From Amphiscolops sp. MND2022 (Eukaryota), in contig OZ076409.1 in the NCBI GenBank assembly GCA_964187785.1, positions 58,282,001-58,346,000 of the forward strand: a DNA stretch of 64,000 nucleotides. Reading direction: 5' to 3'. Numbering within the stretch: the first letter of the stretch is position 1; every line of letters starts with the position of its first letter. Below are positions 6,401-59,515 of the stretch, in pieces. The position numbers and the translations under genes are program-made. A model generated the notes under the pieces. That model was given only the letters and a program-made list of their open reading frames with translations, ran no database searches and had not been told where the DNA came from.

Positions 6401-7858
6401 TACTTTGTGAACTAAAGCATCACGTTGAAGGCCAGTGATTCGAGAGCAGTAAATATGATTCGAGAAGCTCGTGGGAAAATCGCATCTACTCTCTGATTGA
6501 ATTAGCTTCTGAACTTTTGGGAAGACGGTTTTTCGAATACCCGTTTTTTGAGTGTTTGGACATTATATCTATCGTTCAGATTGTTTGTCACAAATCAGAG
6601 TGCGAAACTTTCCCCCCACTACTTAATGATTATTGTAGCTTAGATCGCAAATATTACTGCTCCGCGTGGGCTTTTCTATACCAGAAAAGTCGATTTCTGT
6701 GCATTTTGAGCTGCGTTTCAATTAGAGCAACTAACTGAGTTTTCTGCTAATAAAATTTCTGATCATTTTTGGAAAAAACAATTTTGAACCGCTGTTTAGA
6801 ATCAATCTCCTAAAAAGCTGTTGAAGTTTTTTTTACTTTTCTGCAACACAATGATTTGGCTGCACGAATTGAGTCAGTGATCTAGGGAACCTAAGCGATT
6901 GGAACCTTTGCGATTGATTTTTCCCCTAAACATGAAATGAAGAATTGAATAATCTTTTCAATGTTTCTGCTAATTGTTATCTCGTGATGCCCGCTCTGAT
7001 TTATACCCTTGACTAGATTGCTTTGTCAGCCTGGTTACATTCAAAGTCAACTGAAAGATTCTTCCGAAGATCTTATTCCGGCTTAGTGCTATTTCAATTC
7101 ATAGATTCTGCAGATATCGCTGCACAATTTCCTGCTCAGTATTCCAAATACGGTTGGTATCAAGCAATCAAATGTTGACAGTATTTTGCATTAATCAACT
7201 GGATCTGAAGTTTGGCTGTATTTTTGAGCTGAATTATTTGTGTAAAATAATTTCGAAAGTGCTTAGCGCAAAGCCGGTGAATACTTCCCTTGATTCGGAG
7301 TCTAAGACGTTCTTCAGGAGTGCTTAGGTAGAAACAGCTTGACTTTCTGATGTTTCTGATTTCCAAGATGTTGATTTTTTAAAACACAAGTCATAACCAA
7401 GTTCTGTGATCGATTTCCGTTAAGTCCTGCAACAATTGATCATTTTTAAAAAAAAACGCTTCGCTCGCCTGAACGTTTTACTACCCCAACCCAATGGTCG
7501 TAAAGCAGTTCTCTCCGAGCGATATATATGCTAATATTCATACCGATTTTTTCGTTAAAACACACACTCCAGAAAATGGAGCGAAAAAAGCAAAAGTACT
7601 TGAGTAACCTGGTTGTTGGAAAAGTTGATCGTCTATCTTAGTTCAGCTGACGAATTTCGCTAAAATGTTTTTTTCCATTAATATGATATTTAAATTGTAA
7701 TCTTTCGTTGCTACTTGTGTTGGACCTCTGTGTTGTTGTTTCTCTCGGCTCCTTGGGTGTTTGAAAAACAACATTTTTGACAGTAATCATATCCCATGGT
7801 GCACCCAAACAACCCCTAATCCTGGTTTGATATTTTGTCTTTTTCAGATCAGTGTGAC

Positions 7859-8258
7859 ATGATCGGCTGTATGTACTGTCGCCCTGTGTCTCGTGGGAAA
7901 ATATGTCAAACTACCCTGTGGGGTGTTCTATCACGGGAAACTCGGTTTTCTAAACTTGCAATATGTTCCCGCTATTTCTCATCCTGGTCCGAAACATGCA
8001 ATCTGCCCCAGACTTCCATGCCTTTGCGACACAAAGTTTCAAACGAATTGCAAATTCAATCTGACAACCCGGAGTTTCTCAACTTAAACAACAGAATGCA
8101 CGGCAGTAGGCTTGATCGGACACAGGGGGTCAATGGCGAACAACAGACTTGTGTAGTTTTGCACGATGGACCCCCCTATGCTAATGGCAAACTTCACATG
8201 GGACATGCGGTTAATAAAATTCTCAAAGACTTCATTGCGAGATATCATGTTTCAAAAG
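7859..8258 (+). CDS. IARS2: Mitochondrial isoleucine--tRNA ligase, coding exon 1 of 5 (join gives about 995 aa)
   Basis: Arg/Ser-rich N-terminus resembling a transit peptide; [24 protein letters not shown] (HIGH motif); donor AAAG|GTTGA, phase 1. Confidence 0.9.
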
Positions 8259-10371
8259 GTTGACCACTTTCTCTTACAGAGAATTCATTTCTCAAACAGT
8301 TTCATGCAGTTGAACGTCGAAAACAATCTTATGAAATTATACCATTTTTGGCTGTTAAAGGCTTCTTCTTAGAACTGCGGCTTATTTTTCATGTTTTCTA
8401 AACGACTGATTTGTGTTGTTTGTCAACTTAGAAATGAATACTTAGTGGAATTTGTTAGTTTATTGGGGTAAACTTGTGCTTTGAGATATCAAGCTGCTTG
8501 TTACACGTCTAGTTTTTCAATGTTAAGTGTTAAAATGATTGACATGCTTAACAGCAATTGACATTGAAATTGGATCTAGAAAATAACTTATCGAGAATGG
8601 CACATAATTGGGAAATATATGGGCGGGAATAATAACTAGCCTTTTGTTTCCATATGATGTGTCAGGTTCCTCCCAAGGTTAGGTGTTCAAACTTTTGTCT
8701 GTGCGGCCTATTTTGCGCAGCTCTGTTTTAAAAGTGACATGAGGCTCATGGCAGCTTTCTTTTGTCTGCTCCTATCTTTCTATTCCTTATTGTCTTTCGA
8801 GTTTCGCTCTCCTTTTTCCTGAAAAGGCGACTGATTGCAGATATCGCAAAGAAAAGACCTGAAAGTTTTGAAGGATGCCTGGTGTGTCAAGCCATTTAAT
8901 GGCACTTTTTTGATATGACTGAACTAATGTTGCCTCAGCTCTCCCATTTTATCTAAATGTCAATTGAAGTATTCCTGAACCTTTTTTGTCCGAGTGATTT
9001 CTTTTTCTTGGATTTTTTTGTTCCTGGAGTGATCATTTTCAAGGTTGCCAATTTTGAAATGAACCATGAACTAATTTCATTCCTCTCAATTCATCAAAAA
9101 ACCAAATTTTTGATCACTTCTGTGTTGATGCAGTGTCAGCAGAAATAGAAACAGTCTACAAAAATCCGCTTCTTGCCGCGTTTACTTTACCCTCATTTCG
9201 ATATACCGGAAATAGAAATGTGCTGGTTTTTATCACTCTATTTTTATGTAATTTGAAATAGATTTATGAATACATCTGTTACCAAATTGGTTGTTTAGAG
9301 GATGTCATGCCAACAGTGAATCTATGACTCGACATTCTGATACCTGAATACTAAAAAATTCCTTACAAAAATGTAGAGACCAATTAATTCTCCACTGGTT
9401 TTTTGAATTAAAATCACGAGGATTGTGTAAATATGATTTGGAAAGAAGCCCAACATTTAACGTTATGAAAAGGAAAATGTGACAAACTTTGAAAGGAAAA
9501 ATTGAAACTTTCGTGCTCAATTATGCAGTACTGTTTTTCAGCCATTTTTAATAGGAAAGTTACTGCAGCCATTATATACCATTTGGACGAGGACAATAAT
9601 AATTCACGTGTGACTGATCCTGTCATCTCAATGTTATAACCCTAAATAGCCTTGTATTATAATTGTACATCTGGTATTTGTGAAATTCCACAGTGCGTTT
9701 GAAACAAACAACTTGACGGAGTCTGTCAAACAAATATTCGAATGTTGTTTGGTGACAAGGGTCATTTCGTTTTGATTCCCTCCAGTTTGTTAAGTGGCAA
9801 AAATACTGACAGAATTGGTATATTGCCAAAACAGGCGAACTGTTAATCAATTTTGAATGAAAAGCAACTGGAAACCTCTCTTGGTCTTTTGGATTGACAG
9901 CTGGGTAATTTTTATCACAGTGTGCAAGAAACGAACACTTTCGTGGCGTTTGCACCACCGGTAAACTTTCACCTCATGATGTCTCGAGAAAACTATTTCG
10001 ATGGATGGAATTCAAGGTTTTTCGATGGTTTTCTAATTTATTAAAATGAATGCAACAGTTTAAATGAACTAAATTGGTTTCTATTTACGGATTTTGTTTT
10101 AAAAAATGATTAAATGAGAGAGAAGCTTTTGCGGTCCTATGGAAATATGTTTTCCGCCAATATTTCCATATGTAAAAAGGATAATTTCTTGTGTTTTTTT
10201 GTGCTCGAATCCTAAAAATGTGGTGATCACTGGTGTTCTTCGTCAAAGAAATCGACACGAGTCAAGTTGCTTGAAACCAACTTTTTGAGGTTTCCAAGAT
10301 TTCAGAGGTTTTTTCAATGACTATTCTTGTCTAATTTACTGGTGGTCAATCTTTTACAAGTTGAAATACAG

Positions 10372-58084: not shown

Positions 58085-59420
58085 CCTATACACATAGAAA
58101 AGTGGGTTGAGTGCAGCCGCATAGATGCTAGCCCAAATTTTGTGATGTTTCCTCGCTGCTATCATTGTGAAAAATGTCTGTTGTTTTTGAGGATGATACT
58201 AACGTTAGATGATCATGTCTGAAACTCTTTTGAACTTTGTAGCTTTACATTACATGTTTTCACTTCATTGGGCGCCTTTTGTTTAATATGCGTCCGCTTT
58301 AATAAAGAGGAGAAAAGAATATTTCTTGTAACAAATTGTTTTCAAACTTAGTTTTGAGCAGAAATAAATAGACTCGGTTCAGTTTTCTGTTGATTTTTTT
58401 TTATTTTTTGGAGTAATCACCTGCTAAAGGTGCTGCTACTAGTATGCATTTAGTACGGTAGCATTTGAGATGTTTGAAATTATACAACATTAGACTTAAA
58501 TGATTCAGTATCGAACATAATCGATATTCTTCAACCCATATCCCTGTAATCACATTCTTCTTTATTTCATGATTTTGCACTTGCGCAAAATGCAAAAATG
58601 TTTGAGAAATTTGTTTGGAATTAGAAGTTCTACTTTATTTCATTTTTATATTCGTATTCGGAAATGATCGATTAACTTATTGAAGTTTTTTGCAAGCTTT
58701 TTGCTGTTGCAACAATAAGTGAGCCTCAAAGATGTCGATTTTCATTGACTAGCTTTCCCTTCATTCAAGATTTTTTTAGTATTCCTTCTTTTATCCGAGT
58801 AACGAAGCTTATAGTTCCAAATTTGAATCCTTTCAGCGAACGTTACCACTTTTATGTTCTTTTTCGAATTTCAAGACAATTATTAGATTCCATATGTTGA
58901 GGTTAATTTCCTACCTAATCATTGATGAAGAAAATTTGAAAACCAATAAAAATCTGTGATTATGGATGTTCAAACTCAATTCCCTGCATACGAATGTTTT
59001 TTTTTTCTTACATTCGTATGATTGTTGTTCCAAATTATAATGCTTTCAGTTATCGGATCTCATTTTTAAAAAAAAATCAGTGGTACTGATTTCGGTTACC
59101 CACGTCCTTATGTAGTGGTATGTTATGTTGCTCCTGCTTCACAGCATTTTTGGCGAGAGGTGAAATGAAATGAGATTGTTCCATCCATCTTGCATGAGAC
59201 ACACGCTTCATGATTGATAACTTCGGAAGAATTGTCAAAGGTTGGACAGCCGTGCCTACTGACATGTTGCTCTGAGAGATCCATCTTGAATTAAATCAAG
59301 TAGTTTTTTTTTTAATTCCACACGGCAGTCCTAATCTTTTCAACGCCATAATTTTCACTTTCTTCCTTCAGTTGCGAAACTTCTGGTTTCCGACAGGAGG
59401 TTTATTTCTAGATATATGTA

Positions 59421-59515
59421 ATGGCTGCTATAGCTCCATTCGGGACAGACGACCAGCCCAACACTCGTGCAGTAATTCGAGGGGGAAAGCTAATGATTGT
59501 CCCTTCTTACTCAAG
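59421..59515 (+). CDS. C1orf87-like (EF-hand-type) protein, exon 1; gene incomplete at window end
   Basis: MAAIAPFGTDDQPNTRAVIRGGKLM resembles my recollection of the C1orf87 N-terminus; donor AAG|GTATGT. Confidence 0.55.

Follow-up and report, generated by a model that had tools for sequence, protein, structure and literature searches.

Four genes follow each other head to tail on the forward strand of a 64-kb window of the Amphiscolops sp. MND2022 genome (contig OZ076409.1, positions 58,282,001 to 58,346,000; the window is the whole stretch of DNA analysed), and the first three probably form an operon. They encode the mitochondrial Ile-tRNA synthetase IARS2, the mitochondrial Asp-tRNA synthetase DARS2 and the nucleolar zinc-finger protein LYAR, and the signals at their junctions suggest a single precursor resolved by addition of a spliced leader (SL), with the fourth gene probably separate. 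We put the probability of this reading at about 0.62. Considered pair by pair, DARS2-LYAR is likely to be an SL-resolved operon and IARS2-DARS2 probably is one, with somewhat less assurance; a common unit of LYAR and gene 4 is doubtful, and one comprising all four genes is unlikely. Two features of such operons can be read directly from the DNA: adjacent, co-oriented genes with short gaps, and a genome that carries SL RNA genes together with records of SL trans-splicing.

Translated exon chains gave open models with exclusively GT-AG introns for IARS2, DARS2 and LYAR. Pfam matched class I tRNA synthetase domains in IARS2, class II domains in DARS2 and zf-LYAR in LYAR, bearing out an initial annotation, made from the sequence alone, of four co-oriented genes with two neighbouring mitochondrial synthetases of different classes. 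Gene 4, named 'C1orf87-like' in that annotation, matched DUF5580; its end, read by eye, seems to lie ~1.1 kb beyond the 64-kb window. Stop-to-ATG distances measured 496, 671 and 1336 bp and the largest introns 14,447 and 9,074 bp, close to the earlier estimates of about 500, 670 and 1340 bp for the gaps and up to 14.4 and 9.1 kb for the introns. The flanks of the cluster, 40 kb upstream and 38 kb downstream, held transposon-type open reading frames (ORFs) only (ORFs of at least 95 aa, judged by eye).

Splice and polyadenylation signals between the genes

Splice sites were scored with rough matrices built from 25 introns. The DARS2-LYAR spacer carries a single canonical poly(A) signal and, shortly behind it, a strong 3' splice site that the initial annotation had missed when it credited LYAR with only a weak AG (Table 1). 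This acceptor, ending at 54823, is the sole one scoring at least 6 in the spacer; with its score of 11.4 it belongs to a class of site that occurs 0.12 times per unmasked kb, and it lies 24 nt after the last upstream ATG and opens an ATG-free stretch that reaches to the LYAR start codon. Lengths of 380 nt or more were attained by 46 of 16,983 null ATG gaps. An acceptor scoring at least 10 stood at the start of 2 of the 153 ATG-free stretches that measured at least 300 nt, in a sample that includes the DARS2-LYAR locus itself. We infer that the LYAR mRNA starts at 54824, ~40-50 nt past the predicted DARS2 cleavage site; at the level of predicted signals, the succession of AATAAA, acceptor and ATG-free stretch is operon geometry.

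A competing explanation gives each gene its own promoter and a short outron, with every transcript trans-spliced singly (hybrids with internal promoters included). The cluster would then be a gene island in a transposon-rich genome, with the LYAR promoter inside the 3' end of DARS2. We regard this as rather unlikely: the ~50 nt between predicted DARS2 cleavage and the LYAR acceptor would be too short for a promoter plus outron that did not overlap DARS2, and three gaps below 1.4 kb are bordered on both sides by ~40 kb devoid of host genes.

Between IARS2 and DARS2, neither AATAAA nor ATTAAA was found, only variants at 35232, 35236 and 35473, and the poly(A)-to-acceptor distance is undefined. 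The acceptors ending at 7847 and 35690 directly precede the IARS2 and DARS2 start codons; for comparison, 1.5% of 23,314 unmasked ATGs had an acceptor scoring at least 8 within 15 nt. Both sites had been proposed in the initial annotation, together with one before gene 4 (ending at 59371, 49 nt before the ATG, score 7.3), and all three were recovered. In a promoter motif search, the best 7-mer was not significant after correction.

In the proposed mechanism, a promoter upstream of 7.8 kb would give rise to a ~50-kb precursor covering IARS2, DARS2 and LYAR, the large introns of which would be removed by cis-splicing. Polyadenylation at each gene would cut the read-through transcript into separate mRNAs, with cleavage of DARS2 leaving ~40-50 nt before the LYAR acceptor, and a 31-nt leader would be joined at the acceptors 7847, 35690 and 54823. 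Gene 4 would probably start on its own.

Table 1. Genes, spacers and predicted processing signals in the window (window coordinates)
Feature	Position	Strand	Details
3' splice site, likely SL acceptor at outron end	7835..7847	+	11 nt before IARS2 ATG; score 12.1
IARS2, mitochondrial Ile-tRNA synthetase	7859..35201	+	5 coding exons, 995 aa; introns 2.1-14.4 kb; Pfam
Degenerate full-length SL copy	21730..21760	-	3 mismatches; IARS2 intron 2; not part of the unit
IARS2-DARS2 spacer	35202..35697	+	496 bp; best donor score 4.8
3' splice site, likely SL acceptor	35680..35690	+	7 nt before DARS2 ATG; score 8.5; sole acceptor scoring at least 6 in spacer
DARS2, mitochondrial Asp-tRNA synthetase	35698..54510	+	8 coding exons, 659 aa; Pfam
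AATAAA, likely DARS2 poly(A) signal	54752..54757	+	only canonical one in DARS2-LYAR spacer
Strong 3' splice site, likely SL acceptor of LYAR	54804..54823	+	score 11.4; 66 nt after AATAAA
ATG-free stretch, likely LYAR 5' untranslated region	54824..55181	+	358 nt; ATG gap 383 nt
LYAR, nucleolar zinc-finger protein	55182..58084	+	4 coding exons, 444 aa; Pfam
LYAR-gene 4 spacer	58085..59420	+	1336 bp; AATAAA at 58301, 58363, 58945
Gene 4, DUF5580 family	59421..64000, to ~65,108	+	Pfam; partial model, end read by eye

Spliced leader genes and genomic records of trans-splicing

The premise of trans-splicing in the initial annotation, which had called for a search for SL RNA genes, held up: SL RNA arrays are present, and an SL-capped retrocopy is joined at a parental 3' splice site. 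The published leader of the acoel Symsagittifera roscoffensis had 1,749 exact 29-nt matches genome-wide, compared with 0 for a reversed control, and 1,207 matches of a 25-nt leader pattern are followed by GTAAG, which marks them as SL RNA genes. In the array examined (C1:16.23-16.42 Mb and beyond), a ~904-bp tandem repeat interleaves SL RNA genes with 5S rRNA genes, each unit comprising leader, donor, two hairpins (z = -3.3 for the hairpin fold), an Sm-like AATTTTTGA and the 5S gene. The leader is 31 nt long, ends in AG and is identical in both species, despite DARS2 proteins that are only 58% identical. As the SL gene reads AAATAG/GTAAG at the junction (slash) and lacks the final A of the published leader, this A is likely contributed by the exon. 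A search made with the known leader only showed no second leader class. For S. roscoffensis, the same leader, multiple SL RNA genes and trans-splicing of 30.2% of genes have been described (PMC9911081; bioRxiv 10.1101/2022.08.27.505549); in the available text of these two sources, 'operon' and 'polycistron' occur 0 times.

Use of such acceptors is recorded in the DNA itself. An intronless, SL-capped and 3'-truncated retrocopy of eIF2A is 97-100% identical to 10 exons of its parent on C4 (C4:69258820-69273900), and its leader is attached at precisely the parental TTCTGTGTTTCAG/ATTG, an acceptor of the TTTCAG type that lies ~290 nt ahead of the start codon. The 292 nt leading up to the eIF2A start codon may be the tail of an upstream gene; as only transposon ORFs were seen in the 30 kb upstream, this segment is no proof of a polycistron. 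In one retroelement family, the leader stands either at the start of the element or 27 nt further in, at TTTTCAG/AT. By their sequence, retrocopy and retroelement family are DNA records of trans-splicing at acceptors like those in the window. Such copies of host genes are rare, with one among the 70 SL+A loci examined (of 163). Among the scored candidates, none was a retrocopy of any of the four cluster genes (best 40/959 and best 40/63), and a genomic junction of the leader with the LYAR 5' end was not found. The eIF2A retrocopy is directly followed by a fragment that resembles eEF2 by eye, making it a chimeric retro-insertion.

Subtraction of two slightly different patterns puts the number of dispersed leader copies at ~540. 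In most of the 77 examined, the leader stands in front of ORF1-like genes from many retroelement families (by eye), with a PHD domain found by Pfam in two of nine such genes tested, and of seven leader-like matches in 1.4 Mb, two precede a long ORF that has a reverse transcriptase-like motif. These leader-headed copies look like SL-capped elements of the LINE (long interspersed nuclear element) type, and the degenerate SL copy in IARS2 intron 2 is likely the 5' end of a decayed retroposed element. Two LINE-like insertions in the window lie in sense to their host genes, one in IARS2 intron 2 (12729-16641, +; RVT_1 match) and one in DARS2 intron 4 (44100-48200, +; by eye). SL-bearing transposon transcripts are described for Hydra, where they account for ~30% of transposon long reads (PMC12220107), and for Cer1 of C. 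elegans (PMC3315495), and leader-tagged retrogenes for dinoflagellates (PMC12014239). An Rfam scan of the window gave no match.

Evidence against a shared precursor

Several observations weigh against co-transcription, the first of them at gene 4. The LYAR-gene 4 spacer holds five acceptors scoring at least 6, including the one ending at 59371, and strong donor-like sites at 58902 and 59241 (scores 8.1 and 9.2, respectively), the latter 130 nt before acceptor 59371; the distance from poly(A) signal to acceptor is ~1 kb. These acceptors and donors make it reasonable to read a cis-spliced leader exon in this spacer, and gene 4 may be driven by a promoter of its own and carry a 5' exon joined by cis-splicing. 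Of the single polycistronic unit proposed in the initial annotation, DARS2-LYAR is retained as likely and IARS2-DARS2 as plausible by their signals, whereas the donors before gene 4 speak against a four-gene unit. At 59416-59423, the start of gene 4 reads ATGTAATG, a start-stop overlapping the true ATG, and the same arrangement occurs in a histidine-phosphatase gene described below.

For the cluster as a whole, separate genes whose non-coding first exons are cis-spliced to the acceptors, with no leader involved, seem improbable. Gene 4, with a possible intron at 59241-59371, would be the likeliest case of this arrangement. IARS2 is a further possibility, since another strong donor-like site, a candidate cis donor, lies upstream of it at 7153; moreover, ~70% of genes in S. 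roscoffensis lack a trans-splicing call (PMC9911081; bioRxiv 10.1101/2022.08.27.505549). Against it, no donor scoring at least 6 occurs in the IARS2-DARS2 or DARS2-LYAR spacer, although this is weak evidence, with only ~1.0 and 1.4 expected and 9 of 25 real donors scoring below 6, and the eIF2A retrocopy shows that such acceptors receive the leader.

Other observations weigh against the operon or favour trans-splicing of singly transcribed genes. The gap between IARS2 and DARS2, ~430-450 nt if the first variant poly(A) signal is used, could hold a small promoter, and it exceeds the 250-bp gene-to-gene cut-off applied to chaetognaths (PMC12460157). PDCD6, TYW1 and PP2Ac (names by eye, domains by Pfam), which have no close upstream neighbour, carry TTCAG 7-9 nt before their ATGs; acceptors of this kind therefore point to trans-splicing, not to co-transcription. 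Elsewhere, ~30% of S. roscoffensis genes are trans-spliced (PMC9911081), and the leader is also added to single genes in Macrostomum (PMC8629364), Ciona and Oikopleura (PMC7986045).

Other gene pairs were sought in an orientation control, in which a small codon model was run over 1.4 Mb, or 0.13% of the genome, and 117 of 244 candidate ORFs, chosen by eye, were passed to Pfam. In the 1.2 Mb of this sequence that was chosen blind, ~20 genes turned up with a single close pair, numbers that do not suffice for a test, and the screen may have overlooked small genes; the orientation bias of close pairs outside the window was not significant (2/2 co-oriented, p = 0.25). The close pair of the blind sample, ~150 kb upstream of the window, consists of the histidine-phosphatase gene (TIGAR-like by eye) and a myotubularin-like gene, co-oriented, 347 nt apart and each with TTTCAG ~9 nt before its ATG, which makes it a second operon candidate. 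At C4:69.26-69.28 Mb, eIF2A is followed after 2,045 nt by ERGIC3 in the same orientation, with a strong acceptor ~100 nt ahead of the ERGIC3 start codon. As close, co-oriented neighbours with acceptors, these two pairs count in favour of operons in this genome.

The spacers themselves do not stand out from short introns. Self-comparison of the 1.4 Mb revealed no repeats in the three spacers, in line with the annotated absence of transposons, and genome-wide the 1336-bp spacer had two ~55-bp repeat matches. However, the longest spacer equals or exceeds 10 of 16 introns in length, and eight of the ten introns of up to 1.1 kb were unmasked and hence as repeat-free as the spacers. Since, in addition, the eIF2A-ERGIC3 spacer contains repeat fragments (by eye) and Macrostomum operon spacers gather repeats (PMC8629364), the earlier proposal that the spacers are protected from transposon insertion is unsupported. 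Across the window, CpG observed/expected is ~0.7-1.2; this lack of CpG depletion suggests little DNA methylation in spite of the repeat load.

Host affinity and gene order in relatives

The top named matches of LYAR and DARS2 come from the acoels S. roscoffensis and Convolutriloba macropyga. In a DARS2 tree of 13 rows, the window protein, 58-60% identical to both, groups with them at 100/100 and outside their pair, ruling out a nematode or tunicate affinity of the host. A comparison of gene order in relatives, suggested in the initial annotation, turned out unfavourably for the operon and adds to the case for singly trans-spliced genes: S. roscoffensis LYAR (XP_063715549) lies on an 84.7-Mb RefSeq sequence and DARS2 (XP_063716537) on one of 78.9 Mb, with accessions ~990 numbers apart, and cluster members in ENA share no same-size contig. 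Assuming true orthologs, DARS2 and LYAR are on different chromosomes there and their adjacency is not conserved; gene order is a supporting, not a defining, criterion of an SL-resolved operon. A search for acoel IARS2 sequences retrieved none. The LYAR of a close relative (83% identical) has a 21-residue N-terminal extension, for which neither a leader match nor a convincing spacer match was found.

Comparison with known operons and implications

The three-gene cluster would function in the manner of operons known from Macrostomum, chaetognaths and tunicates, without an operon-specific leader. Macrostomum lignano, a flatworm and not an acoel, shares an SL RNA with a GTAAG donor and Sm site, a repeat-rich genome and operons of conserved genes (PMC8629364). 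The IARS2-DARS2 gap is below the cut-off of 1 kb, after subtraction of repeats, used there; in contrast to the present cluster, Macrostomum operons were defined by SL-mapped RNA, show a main gap peak near 100 bp and have spacers that accumulate repeats, unlike the repeat-free ones found here (PMC8629364). Operons of a chaetognath (PMC12460157) and of the tunicates Ciona and Oikopleura (PMC7986045) likewise lack an operon-specific leader and have housekeeping content, and SL genes in these systems often lie in rDNA clusters. Gaps are below 250 bp in the chaetognath (PMC12460157) and ~0-60 bp in tunicates (PMC7986045), whereas here only DARS2-LYAR is predicted to be so tight, and the precursor, unlike theirs, would span ~50 kb with transposon-filled introns. 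DARS2-LYAR also resembles nematode SL2 operons, in which a poly(A) signal is followed by a TTTCAG acceptor within ~100 nt (PMC7986045; ~100-bp gaps, PMC8629364). The closest SL system is that of S. roscoffensis, another acoel, with the same leader.

A broader picture can be drawn more tentatively, at somewhat less than even odds. Acoels would use SL-resolved operons genome-wide, and the present cluster would be a unit of three to four genes that was assembled in this lineage, with a 50-57 kb precursor and introns full of transposons. The same leader would cap ~500 retroposed elements of many families, which would exploit host read-through and trans-splicing instead of promoters of their own, leaving a DNA record of trans-splice sites.

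Trans-splicing in acoels has already been published, and an operon would extend a known mechanism to a new lineage. In Table 4 of PMC2481426 (2008), the entry for acoel operons is '?', and no later report was found in the open-access literature at the level of article listings; the cluster would likely be the first operon in an acoel. If confirmed, it would bring an early-branching bilaterian group into the debate on whether operons arose once or several times and indicate that operons can function in a 1-Gb genome (assembly size 1.07 Gb) with 14-kb introns. The locus yields base-exact predictions of leader junctions.

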